Shown one piece after another: positions 8,063-54,447 of a stretch of DNA of 64,000 nucleotides. The first letter of the stretch is position 1. The number at the start of each line of letters is the position of its first letter. Made by a program: the position numbers and the translations under genes. The stretch lies in assembly GCA_963774445.1 (NCBI GenBank), contig CAVZFC010000035.1, positions 197,470-261,469 of the forward strand. Direction: 5' to 3'. This DNA is from an uncultured delta proteobacterium (GTDB lineage Bacteria > Myxococcota_A > Polyangia > Haliangiales > Haliangiaceae). Below the pieces are notes generated by a model that saw only the letters and a list, made by a program, of their open reading frames with translations, ran no database searches and was not told where the DNA came from.

Positions 8063-9553
8063 TCAGGGCCGCGTGCTTTTTTGCCGCGCTGGGGAATCGT
8101 GCCTCACTCCCGCGGCGACGACCTCATCGACGAGCAGGTCCGCCTGTTCCAAATCGGCACGGGGGCCGATGTAGCACGGGCGAATGGCGAAGATGTTCCG
8201 CACGCGTGTGGTCGATGGGACGGCCAGGCCGCGGGCGCGGATGTCGGCGACGATCGCCTGGTTGAGGCGCTCGAGGGTGCCCTGGTCGCGGATGGCCGGC
8301 GGGTGGTAGCGGAAGCAACAAATCGACAGCACGGGGTCGGCCAGGAGCTCGAGATCCGGATGCGCGCGGACGCGCTCGGCGACGCGGCGGGCGCAGTCGA
8401 GGTGGCGGGCGACGCGGGCGCGCATGCCGTCGGCCCCGATCTCGGCCAGCGCGGCCCAGACGGCGACGCCGCGCGACGGCGACGAGTGCTCGAGGGTGTG
8501 GTCGTGCGACGACTCGCCGAAGTGATCGAAGGTGGAGCGCGGCTCGCGTTCGGCGCCGCCCTCGACGTAGGCCGCCGGCTCCAGTGCCATCGCGCGCTCG
8601 AGCAGGCCGCCGTCGCGGACGAAGCCGGCGCCGCAGCCGACGGGGACGGCCAGCCACTTGTGCGGGTCAACGGCGAACGAATCGATCTTCGTCAGGTCGC
8701 CGTAGCGGTCGCGCACGCGTGGGTCGAGGACGCCGAAGCCGCCGTAGGCGCCGTCAACGTGCAGCCAGACCCCGCGGTCGTGGGCAATCACTCGCATGGC
8801 GTCGATCGGATCGATGGTGCCGGTGTTGACGTCACCAGCCGAGGCGACGACCGCGATCGGCGTGCGCCCTGCGGTGAGGTCGGCGTCGATGGCGGAGGCC
8901 AGGGCGTCGGTGTCCAGGCCGCGGCGCGGGTCGACGGGAACCCGCACCAGCGCCCTTCGCCCCAGACCGAGCAGGCCGAGCGAGCGCAGCATGACGTGGT
9001 GGACGTGGGCGCCGGCGTAGAGGCGCGGCTCGTTCATCGCCGCCACGCCGTCGGCGCTGGCATCGATGCCGCGCTGCTCGCCGGCGTGCTGGCGGGCGGC
9101 CGCGAGGCCGAGGAAGTTGGCCATCATGCCGCCGCTGACCAGGGCGCCGGCGGTGTCGCCGAGGCCCAGCAGCGATCGCAGCCAGCGCAGCGCGACCTCC
9201 TCGAGCAGGTTGCCCGGCGTGAGCCACCACTTTTGCGCCGACGAGATCGCGGCGGCGAGCTGCGCGACGGCGGGGACCACCGGCGGCGCGGTGGTGACCC
9301 AGCCGGAGAAGCCGGGGTTGCCCAGGCGCAGGCCGTAGGGAACGACCCACTCGGAAAGCAGGCGCAGCACGGCGTCGGCGCCAATGCCCTGGTCGGGCAG
9401 TGGGGTGTTCAGGCGCGCGCGCCACGCGTCGCGTTCGCCTACCCGGTCGGGGCCCTGCTGGGCGTCGGTGAACGCTTCGAGGGCGGGGGCGACGGCGTCG
9501 AGCGCGGCGGCGAGGCCGGCGATGCGGGCGCGTTCGCGGTGGTCCTGGTCCAT
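8063..9553 (-). CDS. PLP-dependent group II decarboxylase (aromatic-L-amino-acid/glutamate decarboxylase family)
   Basis: Fold type I motifs, including the PLP-lysine signature SFAVDPHKWLAVP and AMRVIAHDRGVWLHVDGAYGG. The N-terminus overlaps the upstream lipase ORF by ~115 nt, so the true start may be internal. Confidence 0.85.
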   Translation of the reverse strand: MDQDHRERARIAGLAAALDAVAPALEAFTDAQQGPDRVGERDAWRARLNTPLPDQGIGADAVLRLLSEWVVPYGLRLGNPGFSGWVTTAPPVVPAVAQLAAAISSAQKWWLTPGNLLEEVALRWLRSLLGLGDTAGALVSGGMMANFLGLAAARQHAGEQRGIDASADGVAAMNEPRLYAGAHVHHVMLRSLGLLGLGRRALVRVPVDPRRGLDTDALASAIDADLTAGRTPIAVVASAGDVNTGTIDPIDAMRVIAHDRGVWLHVDGAYGGFGVLDPRVRDRYGDLTKIDSFAVDPHKWLAVPVGCGAGFVRDGGLLERAMALEPAAYVEGGAEREPRSTFDHFGESSHDHTLEHSSPSRGVAVWAALAEIGADGMRARVARHLDCARRVAERVRAHPDLELLADPVLSICCFRYHPPAIRDQGTLERLNQAIVADIRARGLAVPSTTRVRNIFAIRPCYIGPRADLEQADLLVDEVVAAGVRHDSPARQKSTRP

Positions 9554-10401
9554 CGCGGCATTCTATGCGTCCCTTCGCGCGCGCGCAGCCGGCGGGCAAT
9601 TTCTCGATAGATCGGGCGGGCGTCGAAGGCGCGCGACCAGCCGATCTGCGCCCAGTGGTCGGCGTCCAGCTCGGCGATCACCTCGCCCCAGCGCTGCGAC
9701 TGGACCGGCACGATGCCGTCGCTCGATCCGGCGCGGCGTGCCATCAGCCGGCGGCCGGCGCGGAGGAGCGGATTGGCGCCCTCGGTCGGCGTGCGGCCGA
9801 CGACGCTGGCGTAGTAGACGCGCGGATGATCGGGGACGTCGGCGTTGAAGAGCGCCATCCGCTCGGGCGTCAGCCACTCGCTGGCGTCGGACGAGATGCC
9901 GGCGCGGGCGATGGCTCGGCGCAGGCCGGCGACCGGCGGCAGGTTGCCCAGGCGCGCCAGCGGCGTGCCGTGATGGGGCGAGCCGATGGTCACCAGTGAG
10001 GCGACTCGCTCGGCCAGGCCGAGGTGGGCGATCGCGTAGCGCGCGTCGACGCCGCCCATGCTGTGGGCGACCAGGTGGACGCGCGGCGCCTCCAGCGCAT
10101 GGACCGCGCGGGCCAGGGCTGCGGCGCGCTCTTCCACCGACGCCGCCGGCGGCAGGGTGACCACGTGCACCGGCGCCCCGACCTCTTCCATCGCTTCGCC
10201 GACGCCGCGGAAGTAGCGGTGGCGTCGACCGAACAGCTCGATCTCACCCCAGCCGAGAAAGCCGTGCACGAGCACGATCGGGTAGGGAGGCGCAGTCGGG
10301 GCGTGGCGCCGGCGCCAGGCGAGGAGCGCCAGCGCGGCGACCGCCCCGGCGATGACGAGGGCGTAGAGGATCCACATGGCGGGAGCGGGAGGGAGCTTCA
10401 T
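9439..10401 (-). CDS. secreted alpha/beta-hydrolase lipase/esterase (triacylglycerol lipase family)
   Basis: N-terminal TM/signal anchor, oxyanion-hole motif VLVHGFLG, and the nucleophile elbow AHSMGG. ATG at 10401. The low-complexity Pro/Ser tail at the 3' end overlaps the decarboxylase. Confidence 0.8.
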   Translation of the reverse strand: MKLPPAPAMWILYALVIAGAVAALALLAWRRRHAPTAPPYPIVLVHGFLGWGEIELFGRRHRYFRGVGEAMEEVGAPVHVVTLPPAASVEERAAALARAVHALEAPRVHLVAHSMGGVDARYAIAHLGLAERVASLVTIGSPHHGTPLARLGNLPPVAGLRRAIARAGISSDASEWLTPERMALFNADVPDHPRVYYASVVGRTPTEGANPLLRAGRRLMARRAGSSDGIVPVQSQRWGEVIAELDADHWAQIGWSRAFDARPIYREIARRLRAREGTHRMPRWTRTTANAPASPASPPRSTPSPPPSKRSPTPSRAPTG

Positions 10402-10431
10402 GATGCCAGGCGGATCGCCTGAAGCGAACTC

Positions 10432-11151
10432 TCATCGCGCAAGCCCGCGGATGTTCACGGTCCGCGGCGCGCCAGCACGAAGTAGTGATCCAGCGGGCGC
10501 TCCTCTCTGAAGGCGGAGCCGATCGAGACGTGAGTCGAACACCCGGCGCATGAAGTCGCGGGTCCGGTCGTAGACGAACTGCTGCGCGCCGCGGCTGTTG
10601 GGCACCACCTTGGGCCAGCAGTCGGGGACCGGGCCGTCGGGCACCTGGAAGTAGTCGATGACGACGGCGCCGCGCGCCTCCCAGTGTGGCCGGCCGGCGG
10701 TGGGCACGGCGACGAAGAAACCGGGCCCGACCAGGCGCCGCGTCGGTCCCTCGTTGTAGCCGAACAGTCAATCGCTGCCGTCGTCGGGGCGGCTGAAGCG
10801 CTTCTGGAAGCGGCGCAGGGGCGGCGGCAGCGGCAGCGTGTTGAGGCCGTCGTGGATCACCTCGGTGAGCGGCGGCGCGCCGCCGACGAGCTGCTCCAGG
10901 TCGATCGGCGCCGACTCGGCGGCCTTTTCGTAGAGCATGCGCTGCCGCGCGCGAGAGAGGCCGCCGACCTCTTCCCAGCGGGCGGGTGCATCGAGTTGAT
11001 CGAGGAGCGCGGCGATGGCGTCGATGCGCGCGGCGGGGTCGTCGATGAGGGCGTCGAGCTGCACCGGGCGATGGTAGCCGCACGGCGCTGATGGCGTCAG
11101 GCGCGACTTCCGTTCATGCGGAAACCGCAGGACGGGGGATCCCTCTGCCAC
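10432..11151 (-). pseudogene. hypothetical protein gene interrupted by an in-frame TGA at 10768-10770 (pseudogene, sequencing error, or recoded)
   Basis: Two track ORFs (10768..11151 and 10432..10707) share a frame, and my reading finds no other stop between them. Both halves have protein-like composition (…RFQKRFSRPDDGSD*LFGYNEGPTRRLVGPGFFVAVPTAGRPHWEARGAVVIDYFQVPDGP…). The gene lies 30 bp upstream of the lipase. Confidence 0.4.
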
Positions 11152-11212
11152 CTGTTGTTAGCTTCGCCACGTTCGCCAGCTTCGCGACGCAGCGTAGGCT
11201 TTCGCGGTCGCC

Positions 11213-46208: not shown

Positions 46209-46409
46209 TCACCGCCCGCGACCGTGAGCATACTTCTTCGCCGGCGTGTGCAGGGCGAACCGGGCGCCCTGCGGATCGGTGGCCACGCCGAAGCGGCCGA
46301 CCTCCGGGATCTCCTGCGGCGGCACGATCATCGTGCCGCCGAGCTCGGTGACCCGCTTGGCGGCGGCGTCGGCATCGGCCACGCCCAGGTAGCCCATCCC
46401 CGGATGCAT
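46209..46409 (-). CDS. glyoxalase/VOC-family fragment (66 aa)
   Basis: MHPGMGYLGVADADAAAKRVTELGGTMIVPPQEIPEVGRFGVATDPQGARFALH resembles the C-terminal half-module of VOC proteins; likely a remnant. Confidence 0.3.
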   Translation of the reverse strand: MHPGMGYLGVADADAAAKRVTELGGTMIVPPQEIPEVGRFGVATDPQGARFALHTPAKKYAHGRGR

Positions 46410-46474: not shown

Positions 46475-48416
46475 ATGTCGGGGATGTTCCTGGTGCTCGC
46501 CTCGCTGGTCGTCTCCAACGGCGTCTCCGTGGCCCACTGCGACGGCAGCGGTCGGGTCGACTCGCTGCGCGCGCATCTGTACGCGGCGCGCGACGCCGGG
46601 ACGCCCACGGTCGAACGGATGGGCGCGCTCTACTTCGGCGTGCGCTCGGGCGGCACCAACGCCTGGCTCGACGGCGACGCCCCCGACGCGTCGGGCTACC
46701 TGGGAGACGGCGGCGTCGCGACCATGACGTGGGAGCGCGACGGCCTCCGCGTCACCGAATATCTGTTCGCGTCGTTCGCGACCGAGGCGCCGCACCTGGT
46801 CGCGCTGCTCGAGGTGACCAACACCGGCAGCGCGGCGCTGGCCGACGCGGCGATCTTCTCGCTCGAGCAGACCGTCGCCGGCGGCGACGAGAGCGCGACC
46901 TGGACCGGCGGCGCGTTCGAGGAGCGCGGCGACGTGCTGCTGCTCCACCGCCCGCTGGGCGCGCTGGCTCATCACGCGATCGATCCGCGGGCGCAGGTCG
47001 ACGCGGGCGGTCACCTGGCCGATGCCGACACGACGGGGCCGATGCCGTCCCTGGCGGTCGGCTTCGAGTGGGCGCTCGACGGACTGGTGCCCGGAGCATC
47101 GCGCACGGTCGGCGTGATCGTTGGCGTGCGCGACGACGGCGATCGCGCCGCGCTGGACGCCGGTCTCGCCGCCGTGGCGTCGGACCCCGCGCAGGCGCTG
47201 GCCGACGCGCGCGCCGACTGGGACGACTTCTTCGCCCGCGCGGCCGAGCCGCCGGGGCTCGACGGCGACGAGCGCGCGGTCTACCGCCGCTCGCTGGCGC
47301 TCCTGCGCATGGCCCAGGTGCGCGAGGCGGGCGCGCCTGCCGGGCAGATCGTCGCCGCGCTCTATCCGCTGGCCGCCGGGCGGGCGTGGGTGCGCGACGA
47401 GGCCTATGCCGCGCGGGCGCTGGTGCGCGCCGGGCTGCTCGACGAGGCGCGGGCGGCGCTGGCGTTCGTGCTGGCGGCCGGCGCCGGTACCTACCAGAGC
47501 GAGATCGGCGAGCCGTACGCCGTCAGCGTGCTGCGCCAGCGCGGTGACGGCAGCGAGGAGAGCGACGACACCGGCGCCGGGCCGCTGGTCGGCATCGACG
47601 GCTTCGGCCTGGTGCTCGGCGCGGTCAACGAGTACGTCCAGGCCAGCGGCGACACCGCGTTCGCCAGCGACCGAGCCGAGGCGCTGTTCGACCTGACGGC
47701 CACGGTGCTGACCCACCGCATCGACGTCAACGACACGCTGCTGGTCCGCCCCGACAACTCGGTGTGGAACGGCGACCGGCGCAAGTACACCTTCAGTCAG
47801 GCGGCCACGGTGTGGGGCCTGCGCGCGGCGGTGCGGCTGGCCTCCGGCGATGCGCGCGCCGACTCGTACCGCGGGGCCGCAGAATCTGTTTGCCGGCGCC
47901 ATCGCCCAGCGCCTGGTCAACGGCGGCGTGCTGACCGGCGCGCTCGAGCGCGCCGCCGGGCGGCTCGACAGCGCCGCGACGCAGGCGTTCCTCTGGGAGG
48001 TGTTGCCGCCCGACGGCGACGTCGCCCGCGCCACCCTCGACGCTGTCAACCAGGCGCTGCGGCTGCCCGACGGCAGCTACCGGCGCAACGACGAGGCGCC
48101 CGCCGAGGCGTCGCCGACCGCGGCGCTGTGGCTGGCGATGGCCAACGCTCGCGCGGGCAACGACGACCGGGCGGCCGAGATCTTGGCCGGCGTCACTGCC
48201 CGGGCCCGGACGCGCGCCGACCTCGTCGCCGGCGCCGACGGGGAGCCGGTGATCGGCCTGGGCGCCGGGTTGTTCGTCCTGGCCGCCTGGGATCGGCCGG
48301 CGGCCGCGGGCGGCGGCGGGTGTGGATGCGGCAGCGGCGGCCCCGGCGGCGGTGCGCTCCTCTTGCTCGCCGTGGCCGCCGGCCTGCGCCGTCAGCGCCG
48401 CGCGGTCGGGCCGTGA
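46475..48416 (+). CDS. GH15-like six-hairpin glycosidase (glucoamylase/glucodextranase-like) with a MYXO-CTERM tail; split across two frames near 47850-47890
   Basis: The N-terminal ~470 aa are in track ORF 46475..48493 and the C-terminal part is in ORF 47850..48416 (different frame). The tail GGGGCGCGSGGPGGGALLLLAVAAGLRRQRR is a MYXO-CTERM. Confidence 0.6.
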
Positions 48417-48464: not shown

Positions 48465-49551
48465 ATGTCCCCGACCGATCACCTCCCCGCTGATACCACC
48501 GTGCTGGTCACCGGAGCCTCCGGCTTCATGGCCGAGCACACCATCCTCCGCCTGCTCGAGGCCGGCTACCGGGTGCGCGGCACCCTGCGCTCGCTGGCCA
48601 AGGCCGATCGTGTGCGCGCCGTGCTCGCCGCCAACTCCGGCGCCGTCGATCGGGTTGAGCTCGTCGCCGCCGATCTGACCAGCGACGACGGCTGGCGCGA
48701 CGCCGTGCGCGGCTGCCGCTTCGTCTTGCACGTCGCCTCGCCCCTGCCCAGCAAACCGCCGAAAGACGAGAACGAGCTGATTGTCCCCGCGCGTGACGGC
48801 GCCCTGCGCGTGCTCGCCGCGGCCGTGGCCGAGAAGGTCGACCGCGTGGTGATGACCTCGTCGGTGGCTGCGGTGTTGTACGGTCACGCGCGCGACGGCA
48901 GCAAGACCTACGACGAGAACGACTGGTCGGAGCTGACCCGCGAGGTCGGCGCCTACGAGAAGAGCAAGACCATCGCCGAGCGCGCCGCGTGGGACTACAT
49001 GGACAGCCTGCCCGAGGAGCAGCGCGTCGAGTTGTGCACCGTCAACCCGGGCCTGGTGCTCGGCCCGGTGCTGTCGCCCGACTTCAGCACCTCGGGCGAG
49101 GTGGTGCGCAAGCTCCTGGCCCGCGAGATGCCCGGCTGCCCCGACATCGGCTGGGCCGTGGTCGAACGTGCGCGACGTCGCCGACGCCCAGCTGGCGGCG
49201 ATGATCACGCCGGAGGCGGCGGGCAAGCGCTTCGTCCTGGCGATCGAGCACGCCTCGATGCTCGACATCGCGACCATCCTGCGCGACAAATTCGCCGACC
49301 GCGGCTTCAAGGTACCGACGCGCAAGGTGCCCGGCTGGCTGCTCAAGTTGGTGTCGGTCTGGGACAAGACCGCCAAGCTGGCGGTGCCGGAGCTGGGCAA
49401 GCGCCAAGATGTGTCGCACCAGCGCGCCACCGAGCTCCTCGGCTGGCACCCCCGCCCGCTCGACGAGATGGTCACGTCGATGGGCGAGAGCATGATCCAG
49501 CACGGTGTGGTGCGCGGCAAGGGTCAGCGCAGCGTGACCGCGACCTCGTAG
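48465..49551 (+). CDS. NAD(P)-dependent SDR-family reductase/epimerase (cinnamoyl-CoA reductase / DFR-like); split across two frames near 49160
   Basis: VLVTGASGFMAEHTILRLL Rossmann motif and YEKSK active site in ORF 48465. The C-terminal part (RDVADAQLAAM…) is in ORF 49168..49551. Restoring one base regenerates the family motif GWAVVDVRDVA. Confidence 0.7.
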
Positions 49552-49940
49552 GTCGTCCCGTCGCCGCGGTCCAGGTGCAGCAGCGTGGCTCGCTGGCCGA
49601 CCGGCGCGCTGGTGGTGCCGCGAAAGCTCAGCTGGTCGGAACCGCCGGTCTGGTGCCGGTCGAGCTCGACGGTCAGCGACGGGGCGCGCTTGTCGTGCTT
49701 GCCGCTGTCCCGCCACAGCTTGACGTGGTACTCGGCGCCGCCGAGATGGGTTGACAGCTGCGCCGGGCTCTGGTCGTCGATCATCGCCAACGTGAAGCTG
49801 AGCGACTTGCTGCCGCTCTTTCCGGTCTCGACCAGCTCGACGCGGGCGTTGGTCGGAGCCTTGTCGGCGAGGGCCGGTGCCGCCGCGGCGCCGAGGGTGA
49901 GGAAGACGAGCGATACGGGAAGCCAGGTTCGATGAGTCAT
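49524..49940 (-). CDS. small secreted hypothetical protein
   Basis: Signal peptide MTHRTWLPVSLVFLTLGAAAAPALA followed by a beta-rich domain. Confidence 0.5.
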   Translation of the reverse strand: MTHRTWLPVSLVFLTLGAAAAPALADKAPTNARVELVETGKSGSKSLSFTLAMIDDQSPAQLSTHLGGAEYHVKLWRDSGKHDKRAPSLTVELDRHQTGGSDQLSFRGTTSAPVGQRATLLHLDRGDGTTYEVAVTLR

Positions 49941-50083: not shown

Positions 50084-51673
50084 ATGGAGGCGCGCGGCGC
50101 GCCAGATGAGCAGTCGCCGGATTTTCGGCCGCGGCTGCGACGCTGGTTGGAGTGGGCCGATGCGCGCGTCGGTCGGCCGGCGCACGGTTACTGGCTGACG
50201 CGGTTTGCGCTGCTGCGCGCGCTCGGCTTCATCTACTTCGTCGCCTTCCTGTCGGCGACCCAGCAGCTGGTGCCGCTGATCGGCGCCCACGGCATCACCC
50301 CGGCCGGCGACTACCTGGCCAGGCTGTCGGCCGACGGATACGGCTCGGGCGATGTGCCGACGCTGTTCTGGATCACCTCGTCGGACACGGCGCTGCTGGT
50401 GGTCGCGTGGCTGGGCGCAGCGCTGTCGCTGGCGGTCTTGTGCGGCGTGACCAACGCGCCGGTCATGGCGGCGCTGTGGATCCTCTACAGTTCGATCGTC
50501 AACGTCGGCCAGGTCTGGTACGGCTACGGCTGGGAGCTGATGCTGCTGGAGGCCGGCTTCCTGGCGATCTTCCTCTGTCCGCTGCGCGGCCTCCACCCGC
50601 TGGCGCCGCGGATGCCGCCGTCGCGGGTGGTGATCTGGCTCTACCGCTGGATGCTGTTCCGGGTGATGTTCGGCGCCGGTTTGATCAAGCTGCGCGGCGA
50701 CGACTGCTGGCGCCAGCTCACCTGTCTCGACTACCACTACGAGACCCAGCCGATCCCCAGCCCGCTGAGCTGGTACTGGCACCACCTGCCCGACTGGGTG
50801 CACCGGGTCGAGGTCGCCGGCAACCACGTGCTCGAGCTGATCGTGCCGTGGCTGATCTTCGGGCCGCGGCGCGTGCGCCACGTGGCCGCGCTGATCCTCA
50901 TCGGCTTTCAGGTGATGTTGATCCTCAGCGGCAACCTGTCGTTCCTCAACTGGCTGACCATCGCCATCTGCCTGGCCTGTTTCGACGACGGCGCCCTCGG
51001 CCGGCTCTTTGCCCGGCGCGCGCGAGGGCTGGTCGCCAGGCTGCACCGGCGGGTGCGCCCGACCGACGCCCAGAGGCTGGTGGTCCTGGGCCTGGCCGCA
51101 GTCATCGCGGTGCTCAGCATCGAGCCCGCACTCAACCTGGTTTCCAGCAGCCAGCGGATGAACGCCGCCTACGACCGGTTCAGCATCGTCAACACCTACG
51201 GCGCCTTCGGCTCGGTGGGGGATGCGCGCTACCAGGCGGTCATCCAGGGCACCGACGACCCGTCGCCCGACGGCGCCCACTGGAAGAGCTACGTCCTGCC
51301 GTGCCAGCCGGGGCCGCTCGATCGCCGGCCGTGCATGATCTCGCCGTACCAGTTGCGTCTCGACTGGCAGCTGTGGTTCGCCGGTCCGTCAACCCCGTCG
51401 CGCAACCCGTGGCTGGTCAGCCTGGTCTATCAGCTCCTCGGCGGTGACGACGACGTGACCACGCTGTTTGCCGTCGACCCGTTCCCCGATCGGCCGCCGC
51501 GCTTCGTCCGCGTGATGCGCTACCGCTATCGCTTCACCGATCCGGGCGAGCCCGGCTGGTGGACGCGCGAGCCGGCCGGCGAGATCCTTGGCCCGGTGTC
51601 GGCGGACGACCCGGGGCTGCTCGAGTTCCTCCGGCGTCACGGGTTTCTGGTCGCGCGTCAACGTGATATGTGA
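50084..51673 (+). CDS. lipase maturation factor (LMF1/DUF1222) family polytopic membrane protein
   Basis: Near-identity to conserved LMF blocks: YWLTRFALLRALGFIYFVAFL, MAALWILYSSIVNVGQVWYGYGWELMLLEAGFLAIFLCPL, and FGAGLIKLRGDDCWRQLTCLDYHYETQPIPSPL. Confidence 0.85.
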   Translation: MEARGAPDEQSPDFRPRLRRWLEWADARVGRPAHGYWLTRFALLRALGFIYFVAFLSATQQLVPLIGAHGITPAGDYLARLSADGYGSGDVPTLFWITSSDTALLVVAWLGAALSLAVLCGVTNAPVMAALWILYSSIVNVGQVWYGYGWELMLLEAGFLAIFLCPLRGLHPLAPRMPPSRVVIWLYRWMLFRVMFGAGLIKLRGDDCWRQLTCLDYHYETQPIPSPLSWYWHHLPDWVHRVEVAGNHVLELIVPWLIFGPRRVRHVAALILIGFQVMLILSGNLSFLNWLTIAICLACFDDGALGRLFARRARGLVARLHRRVRPTDAQRLVVLGLAAVIAVLSIEPALNLVSSSQRMNAAYDRFSIVNTYGAFGSVGDARYQAVIQGTDDPSPDGAHWKSYVLPCQPGPLDRRPCMISPYQLRLDWQLWFAGPSTPSRNPWLVSLVYQLLGGDDDVTTLFAVDPFPDRPPRFVRVMRYRYRFTDPGEPGWWTREPAGEILGPVSADDPGLLEFLRRHGFLVARQRDM

Positions 51674-51695
51674 GAGGCCAGCGCGGGAGGATGTC

Positions 51696-52436
51696 GTGAT
51701 CGAAAAAGCCATCGAGATTGCCACGCCCGACGGCACCGCCGACGGGTTCCTTTTTTGCCCCGACGACCAGCCTCGCCCCGGGGTGATCCACCTGACCGAC
51801 ATCTGGGGGATCCGGCCGGCGCAAAAGGAGATGTGCCGGCACCTGGCGGCCGAGGGCTACACGGTGCTCCTGCCCAACGTCTTCTACCGGGCTGGGCGGC
51901 CGCCGCTCTTTCCCGCCGGCGCCAAGTTCGGCGAGCCGGCGACGATGAAGCGCTTCGGCGAGGTCACCCAGCCGCTCACGCCCGAGGCGGTCGAGCGCGA
52001 CGCCGGCGCCTACGTCGACTTCCTGCGGGGCCAGAAGAACGTGGCCGGCGACACCGTCGCGGCGGTCGGTCACTGCTTCACCGGCGCCGTCGCCCTGCGC
52101 ATCGCGGCGGCGCAGCCGGATAGCGTCGCGTTGGCGGTCTCGTTCCATGGCGGCCGGCTGTACACCGACGATCCGACCAGCCCGCACCTTGTGCTGCCAA
52201 AGGTGCGCGCGCGCCTCTACTTCGGCCACGCGGTCGAGGACGGCAGCATGCCGGCCGAGGCGATCGCCAAGCTCGATCAGGCGCTGGCAGAGTGGGGCGG
52301 CCGCTACGAGAGCGAGGTCTACGACGGCGCGCTCCACGGCTGGACCACGCTCGAGTCCGAGCGCTATCACCCCGAGCAGGCCGCGCGCGCGTTCGCCGTG
52401 CTCACCGGGCTGCTCAGCGAGACCTTCGGCTCATAG
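51696..52436 (+). CDS. dienelactone hydrolase-family alpha/beta hydrolase
   Basis: DLH fold with nucleophile region VGHCFTGAV, and Asp/His downstream. GTG start with a GGGAGGA RBS; 23 bp after the LMF gene. Confidence 0.8.
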   Translation: MIEKAIEIATPDGTADGFLFCPDDQPRPGVIHLTDIWGIRPAQKEMCRHLAAEGYTVLLPNVFYRAGRPPLFPAGAKFGEPATMKRFGEVTQPLTPEAVERDAGAYVDFLRGQKNVAGDTVAAVGHCFTGAVALRIAAAQPDSVALAVSFHGGRLYTDDPTSPHLVLPKVRARLYFGHAVEDGSMPAEAIAKLDQALAEWGGRYESEVYDGALHGWTTLESERYHPEQAARAFAVLTGLLSETFGS

Positions 52437-54447
52437 CAGCGCCAGGAACGCGCGCAGCGCCTGCTGCTCCCCGGCAGTCAGCGCCGGCGGATCGGCATCG
52501 GCGCCTTCGTGGTGGAAGGCGCCGGTCGCCGGATCGACGCGCACCCGCGCCAAGAGCTCCTCCAGACTGTCGGCGCTGCCGTTGGTGAAGTAGGGATGCT
52601 TGCGGTAGAGGCGCCGTAGCGACGGCACCCGCGAGCCCAGCGGGTGGACGTACGGCTCGACGCCGGTCTTCTGGTAGCCGTCGCTGCCCCAGACGATCGG
52701 TCCGCGTGCGCTCATCACCAGCGCCTCCCAGCGGTCGAACGGCACCCGCGTGGCCGGGTCGTCGGCCTGCAGGCGCGCGGCGTGGCAGCCCTCGCAGTGG
52801 TCGCGGAACAGCTCGGCGCCGCGCCGCTCGTCGTCGCCGAAGCTCGTCCGTCCCGCGACGGCCGGGTTGCTGGCGTGGGTGTAGACCATGAGGAACGACA
52901 TCAGCGCCCGGCGCAGCTCGACCGGGTCGAGCGTCGTCTGCTGCAGGCCGAGGAGCGGCAGCCACGGCACCACCGAGGTGTCGACCGAGAACCACGATGA
53001 TCGTCCGCTGTGCGCGTTGACCACGCGGAACTCGCTGTCAACCATGTCGGCCATGGTCCGGTCGAGGGCGCGCGAAAAGTGGGGCCGGTTGTTGAACAGC
53101 CCGCGGACCGAGCGGGTGGTGGCGTAGATGTCGTCGCGCCCGGTGTAGTGCGTGCGGCCGTCGCTGTAGCCGTCGTGGTGGCAGCTTTGACAGGTGAAGC
53201 GGCTGTCGGCGCCGTCGCTGCCGTTCCACGGCGCGATCAGCGTGGTGCTGTAGAGCGCCTCGCCCAGGCGGACCTCGGCGGAGACGGCGTCGGCGCCGGC
53301 GACCTGGACGATCGCCCGCGTGACACCGTCGGGCTCGACCGCGACCCAGGCGTCGAGCAGCGGGTTGGCGGCGACGGCGGCGCCGGTGGCGTCGTAGGCG
53401 ATGGCCGTGGCTCCGGGCGGCGCGCTGCTCGTCGCGACCGCCGGCGCCGCGGCGCCGGCCGACCAGCTGATCGTCGCCCCGCGGTCGCTGCCGGCGGCGG
53501 CCACCCGCGACACCGCCAATCCGTCGGCGGCCACGCGCAGGTCGATCGCTTCCGGCATCACCACGCCGGCCGCCGACAGGTTGACCTCGCCGCGGCGGTC
53601 GAGGACGCCGGCGCCGTCGACCGTGTAGAGGAAGGCGAACGAGTCGAGGTTGCCGAAGCCGCCACCGGTGCGATCGAGCGGGCGGTCCTCCAGGCCGCCG
53701 GCGGCGACGAGCAGCCGGCTGCCGTTGACCGCGGCCGCCACCGACACCAGCGGCCCGTCGTGGCGGATGGCCGCGACCTCGGCGACGGCGCCATCGGTCA
53801 CGCGATAGAATCTCGACCGCGCGATCGAGCAGACAGTCGACGACCAGATAGTCGCCGGCGGTGGCCAGCCGGTGCGGGCCCGGGCAACGGGCCAGCTCGC
53901 GCGCGGTGCCGGTGGCGGTGGCGACCGCCAGGATCCTCCCGGCCAGCTCGTCGGCGACGTAGAGGGTTCCGGCCGGGCCGGTGGCGACGTCGGCGATCGA
54001 TCCGACCTGGCCGGCCAGCCAGGTGGCGTGCGGCGACAGCGCGCCACCGGCGCCGCGCTGGTAGCCGCGGAGCTCGAGCGAGTCGTGGCCGCCGACCCAA
54101 ATCACACCGGCGCCGTCCGCCGCGACCGCCGTTGGCGTCAACGGCGCCGCCTCGCGCGCCAGCTCCAGGCCATCGGCGTCGATCAGCACCACCGCGTCGT
54201 CGCCGGCCAGCACCCCGGCGAAGCCACCGCCAGAGAGCGCGGCGAGGTCGACCGGGTCCGGACCGAGGGCGTGCTCGGCGGGCGGCAGCGCGGCGAAGTC
54301 GGTGGCCGCGCGCATCGAAGCCTCGTACGCGCGCAGCGGCGCCAACCGGTCGGCATCGTCGCCCGCGACCTGGCCCACCGTGCACGCGAGGAGCGCGAAC
54401 GCGGGGGCCAGGCAGAGCGCCCTACCAGCCGCCGGTCCCGCCGCCAC
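52431..54447 (-). CDS. lipoprotein fusion: beta-propeller-like N-domain + di-heme cytochrome c peroxidase (CCP/MauG family) C-domain; split across two frames near 53800-53830
   Basis: Lipobox LAPAFALLAC and the propeller-like part are in track ORF 53038..54570. The CCP part, with CQSCHH and CEGCHA heme motifs, is in ORF 52431..54047. Removing one base gives a continuous …LLDRAVEFYRVTDGAV…. Confidence 0.6.

Follow-up and report, generated by a model that had tools for sequence, protein, structure and literature searches.

A lipase maturation factor homolog and its dienelactone hydrolase neighbour in a Haliangiaceae bacterium are probably functionally independent

Does a bacterial homolog of the animal lipase maturation factor LMF1 mature the hydrolase encoded beside it? 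The question is raised by a 64,000-nucleotide stretch of DNA from an uncultured delta proteobacterium of the Haliangiaceae (contig CAVZFC010000035.1, positions 197,470 to 261,469), referred to here as the window. It contains a gene of the lipase maturation factor (LMF) family followed on the same strand by a gene of the dienelactone hydrolase (DLH) family. An original prediction, made from the sequence alone, read the two as a chaperone-client pair. This reading was not supported: synteny of the two genes was not conserved, the pair was interrupted in a close relative, L082, and the DLH lacks an export signal. The explanation that we favour, and consider rather probable, is that the locus comprises two functionally independent genes that came to lie side by side in one narrow lineage, where they are probably co-transcribed; LMF would act in the periplasm in a manner resembling vitamin-K gamma-carboxylase (GGCX), and the DLH would not be its client.

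The identity of the LMF gene was evaluated using profile searches. The predicted open reading frame (ORF) is present, and its polytopic product matched both Pfam LMF domains above their gathering cutoffs: the LMF1 core, PF06762, with 234.8 bits (cutoff 27, E = 6.7e-70) over profile positions 1-161 of 163, and LMF1_C, PF25179, with 135.2 bits (cutoff 34.2, E = 2e-39). In the AlphaFold2 (AF2) model, strands at residues 382-390, 474-484, and 493-505 lie in the C-terminal domain. Using BLASTP, the protein shared 45% identity over 491 residues (E = 9e-144) with P0256, a Priapulus caudatus protein recovered by an exhaustive HMMER search and named 'lipase maturation factor 1-like' by both NCBI and UniRef. 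The two share near-identical blocks as well as cysteines. Thus, the near-identical blocks initially claimed for human LMF1 stand with respect to this animal protein. The human quotation itself, whose counterpart is residues 128-167 of the window protein (nt 50465-50584), was unconfirmed: a search with the peptide returned four short fragments of 73-84% identity. If the quotation is accurate, 30 of 40 positions are identical. The window gene truly belongs to the LMF family, which is already known and widely annotated, and is an ordinary member of it.

Synteny was investigated in 80 LMF loci from species-representative genomes and 80 from metagenomes, together spanning many phyla. Neighbouring DLH genes were searched for by tblastn with the window DLH (E ≤ 1e-3). 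A DLH gene adjoined LMF in none of these 160 other loci, and tblastn matches were found only in close relatives of the window; one weak match, in L051, lay 5.7 kb from LMF on the opposite strand. A Pfam census covered the immediate downstream neighbour in 132 loci and the immediate upstream neighbour in 143. The recurrent families were ABHD18 (14), PlsC-type acyltransferase (13), and GDSL (11), all from the Udaeobacter/Chthoniobacterales clade (hereafter the Udaeobacter clade), and every other family occurred in six loci or fewer. Once this clade was removed, no alpha/beta-hydrolase or GDSL family was found in two or more of the remaining 95 loci. Similarly, an assumption-free clustering of all flanking ORFs yielded neighbours that recurred within one clade only.

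Same-strand genes close behind LMF were uncommon: of 29 sequence lineages, only six had one starting within ~130 nt downstream. The ten nearby same-strand genes identified behind LMF in other lineages were all different: a PAS/STAS protein, a Na/H exchanger, a DUF72 protein, an S41 peptidase, SerRS, a flavoprotein, an amidase, a methyltransferase, a beta-propeller protein, and one unannotated protein. A cluster of 524-residue neighbours considered as a tandem LMF paralogue was rejected, as these are flavin amine-oxidase-type proteins. Genes for flavin or pyridine-nucleotide-disulfide oxidoreductases adjoined LMF downstream in 4 of 95 loci and upstream in 5 of 143, and genes for DCC1-like thiol-disulfide oxidoreductases in 2 of 95 loci; this faint redox theme may be due to chance. 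The LMF family is without a conserved gene neighbour in the surveyed loci. The original prediction had named lack of synteny elsewhere as evidence against itself, and the pairing was confined to a lineage whose members share at least 84% identity with the window.

Within that lineage, the arrangement varied. In L081 (JGI sample 3300009702) and L163 (Logan SRR31012009), LMF is followed by DLH after gaps of 69 and 56 nt, respectively, and the flanking genes are those of the window. In L082 (8001-11163), a GH43/PA14 gene with no counterpart in the window (9622-11163) lies between LMF and DLH, LMF carries a frame break near 9067, and the DLH retains its own leader of ~55 nt. The adjacency of LMF and DLH is therefore a feature of one narrow lineage (the window, L081, and L163) and is unstable even there.

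The downstream gene was correctly predicted to encode a DLH-family alpha/beta hydrolase: it matched PF01738 with 124.1 bits (cutoff 21, E = 7.9e-36), and its matches in the PDB included 3f67, 7jka, and 1din (ClcD), with a best E of 1.5e-10. The GHC127FTG motif aligns with GFCWGG of 3f67 and GFCFGG of 7jka, and Asp182 and His214 align with an Asp and a His of 3f67, making them the likely triad partners of Cys127. Hydropathy analysis revealed no signal peptide, N-terminal hydrophobic segment, or transmembrane segment in the DLH. Consistent with this, the alignment with ClcD runs from residue 2 to residue 2, with no N-terminal extension, and the orthologues in L081, L082, and L163 are likewise 246 residues long. 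GTG, 5 nt after GGGAGGA, is the likely start codon; the frame upstream of it overlaps the 3' end of LMF and is not protein-like. By these features, the DLH is predicted to be an esterase of the dienelactone hydrolase type that acts in the cytoplasm through a Cys nucleophile.

The topology of LMF was evaluated using the positive-inside rule. Segments 1-37, 168-182, and 300-331 are rich in Arg and Lys, and segment 67-103 is poor in them. [quoted passage not shown] LMF1 exposes loops A and C and its C-terminus to the lumen, and meets its clients on that side (PMC11526315). Because the Lys/Arg distribution agrees with this published topology, the conserved regions of LMF, like its C-terminal beta-domain, are most likely exposed to the periplasm, and the protein would act on exported substrates. 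The lumenal side corresponds to the periplasm, so a cytoplasmic esterase lacking an export signal is an unlikely client of LMF.

What LMF might do there is suggested by its fold. A Foldseek search with the LMF model returned 15 GGCX entries with E-values of 3e-6 to 2e-4, the next match having an E-value of 0.27. As judged from the model, the LMF family shares the GGCX fold. In an alignment of 121 LMF sequences, K202 was present in all 121 and E251 in 118; E156, D206, W209, Q222, N284, N289, and D302 are also invariant or nearly so across the family. We used this alignment and 24 GGCX/HTTM sequences in profile-profile comparisons. Using hhalign, LMF 177-307 aligned collinearly with GGCX 193-317 (score 30.4, P = 0.007, probability 5%). 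This score exceeded those of the reversed controls (18) and of 40 block shuffles (mean 20.2, maximum 29.2). This low-confidence alignment pairs K202 of LMF with K218 of GGCX and E251 with D263. In GGCX, K218 is the catalytic base and D263 its acidic partner (PMC13486548).

Based on these data, LMF is envisaged as a polytopic inner-membrane protein of the GGCX fold whose invariant polar centre (E156, K202, D206, Q222, E251, N284, N289, and D302) would face the periplasm. Its mechanism would be catalytic and GGCX-like, centred on K202 and E251, rather than passive chaperoning, and its action might be in protein maturation or redox, by analogy with LMF1. A broader proposal, that LMF proteins including human LMF1 are GGCX-like membrane enzymes with a catalytic Lys/Glu pair facing the periplasm or the lumen of the endoplasmic reticulum (ER), and are possibly quinol-driven, is put forward only tentatively, and we regard it as doubtful. 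A literature search found no paper linking LMF1 to GGCX.

A further resemblance was observed between the motif QVWYGYGWELMLL at LMF residues 143-155 (window 50510-50548) and GGCX 392-404, NGLYGYSWDMMVH. The resemblance breaks the collinearity of the main alignment and falls short of significance (hhalign probability 1.6%). The GGCX stretch 392-404 lies within a region reported to be essential for carboxylation.

Several observations weigh against the combination of two independent genes and a GGCX-like LMF. The sequence link to GGCX is weak, as the hhalign probability of 5% indicates, and the equivalence of K202 and K218, which comes from a low-confidence profile alignment, is tentative. Pfam HTTM (PF05090) had no match at E ≤ 10 in any of 25 LMF proteins, and GGCX was matched neither when an LMF profile was run against PDB sequences nor with hmmsearch --max. 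Similarly, hhalign of the LMF alignment against a single GGCX sequence was negative. As for independence, the tight 22-nt spacing suggests that LMF and DLH are co-expressed in the window organism, and a second lineage, the Udaeobacter clade, also has an ester hydrolase lacking a signal peptide directly after LMF. Finally, the LMF1 literature leans towards chaperoning or thiol-redox activity, and the window protein retains all of the conserved cysteines.

These cysteines form the basis of the best-surviving alternative, in which LMF draws reducing equivalents from thioredoxin in the cytoplasm and hands them to oxidoreductases in the periplasm, like DsbD/CcdA. The window protein has eight cysteines (120, 165, 208, 214, 296, 299, 407, and 417), of which C165, C208, C214, C299, C407, and C417 are common with animal P0256. 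Four are at a constant offset of 23 from C188, C231, C237, and C322 of human LMF1, which are redox-active (PMC11526315). The literature on LMF1 describes a chaperone that takes part in ER redox and is a candidate for a DsbD-like shuttle of reductant, and the DCC1-like genes that adjoin LMF in two loci would suit a relay. The cysteines are nevertheless not universal in the bacterial family: among the 121 sequences, C208 was present in 81, C214 in 76, and C407/C417 in 37, and Bacteroidota members lack the C208/C214 pair, whereas K202, E156, Q222, and D302 are invariant. In addition, the fold matches GGCX rather than DsbD, and we consider a thiol relay unlikely.

Less probable still is a joint pathway in which LMF serves as a membrane-bound enzyme for a lipid or quinone-like substrate, with an ester hydrolase in the cytoplasm dealing with a product or precursor. 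Such a pathway would fit the occurrence, in two unrelated lineages, of an ester hydrolase without a signal peptide right after LMF: the DLH of the window and a GDSL-like hydrolase in the Udaeobacter clade. The latter gene is on the same strand as LMF and 20-50 nt behind it in at least 12 loci; loci of the clade include L006, L013, L015, L021, L078, L088, L091, L096, L099 (3701-4741), and L107. Also near LMF in this clade, and convergent with it, is a gene whose product joins a PlsC-type acyltransferase to an ABHD18-like domain. In giant viruses, GGCX-like epoxidases occur as fusions with lipid desaturases (PMC13486548), which would accord with the GGCX-like fold of LMF. However, two of ~30 LMF lineages is near the chance expectation for common hydrolase families, the DLH and GDSL-like hydrolases differ in fold, the Udaeobacter arrangement tracks relatedness, and the LMF-DLH pair is broken in L082. 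The lipid-flavoured neighbourhood of LMF is confined to the Udaeobacter clade, and its GDSL and acyltransferase genes were rejected as a general link to lipases as they come from one clade with 73-100% LMF identity. A functional link of LMF to ester hydrolases is possible.

The proposal that LMF folds or matures the adjacent DLH, as LMF1 does dimeric lipases or Lif does LipA, is very improbable: the short same-strand gap lacking a terminator, the order retained in L081 and L163, and the need for LMF1 in the maturation of alpha/beta-fold lipases are outweighed by the lack of DLH neighbours in the 160 other loci and of alpha/beta-hydrolase enrichment in the 95 outside the Udaeobacter clade, by the GH43 gene that splits the pair in L082, by the ClcD-like N-terminus of a DLH that would have to meet its helper on the lumenal side, and by the small size of DLH-family enzymes, which are not known from the crystal-structure literature to need folding helpers.

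The preferred reading of an independent, periplasmically acting LMF concerns a large family. With clustering at 50% identity, exhaustive searching recovered 8,971 cluster representatives at E ≤ 1e-3, of which 2,257 reached E ≤ 1e-30; a word-indexed search gave at least 7,989 matches at E ≤ 1e-5 among the matches listed. Members from Sorangium, Polyangiaceae, Acidobacteria, and others are named 'lipase maturation factor family protein' by NCBI. No LMF model was found in NCBIfam, and look-up found no database record of the exact window protein. Its closest relatives, P0001 and P0002, are 86% identical to it, P0001 covering 99% of its length. Beyond these two, identity is at most 57% across Myxococcota, Acidobacteriota, Verrucomicrobiota, and Bacteroidota. 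The nearest named homologs, from Sorangium and Polyangiaceae, are 55-57% identical, and other phyla are equally close; the G+C content of the window is 69-77%. The bacterial role of the family was described at the outset as essentially unknown and, indeed, a literature search found no study of a bacterial member.

Homologs were also observed outside bacteria. At 45-48%, the identity of animal LMF1-like proteins to the bacterial one is unusually high across domains and suggests horizontal transfer or strong constraint. P0306, a Neospora caninum protein annotated as 'rhoptry protein ROP14', is an LMF homolog with 43% identity in the best stretch. LMF homologs were present in L026 and L065, on contigs binned as Methanosarcinales and Woesearchaeota metagenome-assembled genomes; these contigs may be mis-binned bacterial DNA.

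Table 1. Features of the LMF-DLH locus, in window coordinates. pLDDT, predicted local distance difference test.
Feature	Position	Strand	Evidence
Left boundary: divergent 138-aa protein, signal-peptide-like N-terminus, no Pfam match	49527..49940	-	ORF; orthologues in L081, L082, L163
LMF-family gene, 529 aa, polytopic membrane protein	50084..51673 (including stop)	+	ORF, Pfam, orthologue P0001, AF2 pLDDT 84.5
LMF1 core domain, aa 146-305, most conserved membrane part	50519..50998	+	Pfam PF06762; contains family-invariant E156, K202, D206, W209, Q222, E251, N284, N289, D302
Codon of Lys202, invariant in 121/121 LMF proteins, aligned with GGCX Lys218	50687..50689	+	Conservation, low-confidence hhalign
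LMF1_C domain, aa 368-501, beta-rich, predicted outside the cytoplasmic membrane	51185..51586	+	Pfam PF25179
Intergenic gap, 22 nt, with Shine-Dalgarno-like GGGAGGA (51685-51691), no terminator	51674..51695	+	Sequence, terminator scan
DLH-family gene, 246 aa, GTG start, no signal peptide	51696..52436 (including stop)	+	Pfam DLH, PDB matches, orthologues
Codon of Cys127, predicted nucleophile (GHCFTG) of DLH	52074..52076	+	Alignment with 3f67, 7jka
Right boundary: convergent cytochrome-c-like gene, frameshifted in window	52431..54399	-	Weak Pfam Cytochrom_C; tblastn pieces in frames -3, -2

LMF and DLH form a two-gene unit in that both flanking genes are on the opposite strand. The short same-strand gap was as predicted, its length being 22 nt rather than 23 when counted from the likely GTG start at 51696. 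A terminator scan found no terminator-like hairpin between the two genes. No sigma-70-like promoter sites were found either, the scan being uninformative for a genome so rich in G+C. Judging from this arrangement, co-transcription of LMF and DLH in the window organism is plausible. A comparison of window 51640-51695 with its counterparts in L081 (6185-6275) and L163 (9572-9650) showed that LMF ends in ~10 residues that differ from those of the orthologues. A deletion in the window moves the LMF stop into the conserved DLH leader, shortening the gap from 56-69 nt to 22 nt.

The surrounding genes are less intact in the assembled sequence. A GH15-like gene of 644 residues (window 46475-48299) is frameshifted relative to its orthologues in L163, L081, and L082, and an SDR/NmrA-like gene of 361 residues (48465-49551) is frameshifted by a 1-nt insertion, 'A', at 49165. 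The cytochrome-c-like gene at the right boundary (52464-54399), which encodes 657 residues in its orthologues, is frameshifted as well. LMF and DLH, flanked by these three genes, are intact; the frameshifts reflect either an indel-prone assembly or real gene decay. At window 46251-46397, a glyoxalase gene is reduced to a 49-residue remnant and a TetR gene is absent; both are upstream in L081, L082, and L163.

A chaperone-client pair would have provided a bacterial model of lipase maturation, which the evidence does not support. What remains is a widespread, well-conserved bacterial family, 45% identical to an animal LMF1-like protein, with the GGCX fold and an uninformative neighbourhood. The lead of a GGCX-like centre concerns the whole LMF family rather than the window alone and provides a hypothesis for experiment. 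If the Lys/Glu centre is catalytic, the view of LMF1 in human lipid disease would change, and culturable carriers such as Chitinophaga, Mucilaginibacter, Hymenobacter, and Sorangium would give practical access to the biochemical activity that underlies a human hypertriglyceridaemia gene.

The locus can be compared with several known systems. The classical bacterial chaperone-client operon is Lif/LipB-LipA of Pseudomonas and Burkholderia, in which the foldase gene is consistently paired with that of its client, a lipase secreted by way of a signal peptide. As in that operon, a gene for a membrane-anchored protein adjoins a hydrolase gene on one strand; the window differs in that its hydrolase has no signal peptide, its pairing is not conserved, and the LMF fold is unrelated to Lif. 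The DLH matches ClcD, a carboxymethylenebutenolidase of PF01738, in length and N-terminus, and its Cys nucleophile motif aligns with those of solved DLHs, although its identity to solved members is low and a Pfam scan found no chlorocatechol-pathway genes nearby.

With DsbD/CcdA, LMF of the window has in common conserved cysteines in membrane and predicted extracytoplasmic segments; the fold differs, and much of the bacterial family does without these cysteines. With respect to GGCX, N290 aligns with a Leu in LMF, LMF proteins do not match Pfam HTTM, sequence methods all fall below significance, and nothing in the protein indicates dependence on vitamin K or quinone or a Gla-type substrate. 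As compared to eukaryotic LMF1/LMF2 (PF06762 and PF25179; IPR009613), the known clients (LPL, HL, EL, fibronectin, and LDLR) and partners (calnexin, ERp44/72, ERdj5, and Sel1L) are absent in the bacterium, and the window protein lacks the N-terminal extension of many eukaryotic members. Nevertheless, the bacterial protein contains both Pfam domains at full length and, in keeping with its eukaryotic counterparts, is predicted to span the membrane several times and to have a large C-terminal domain outside it.

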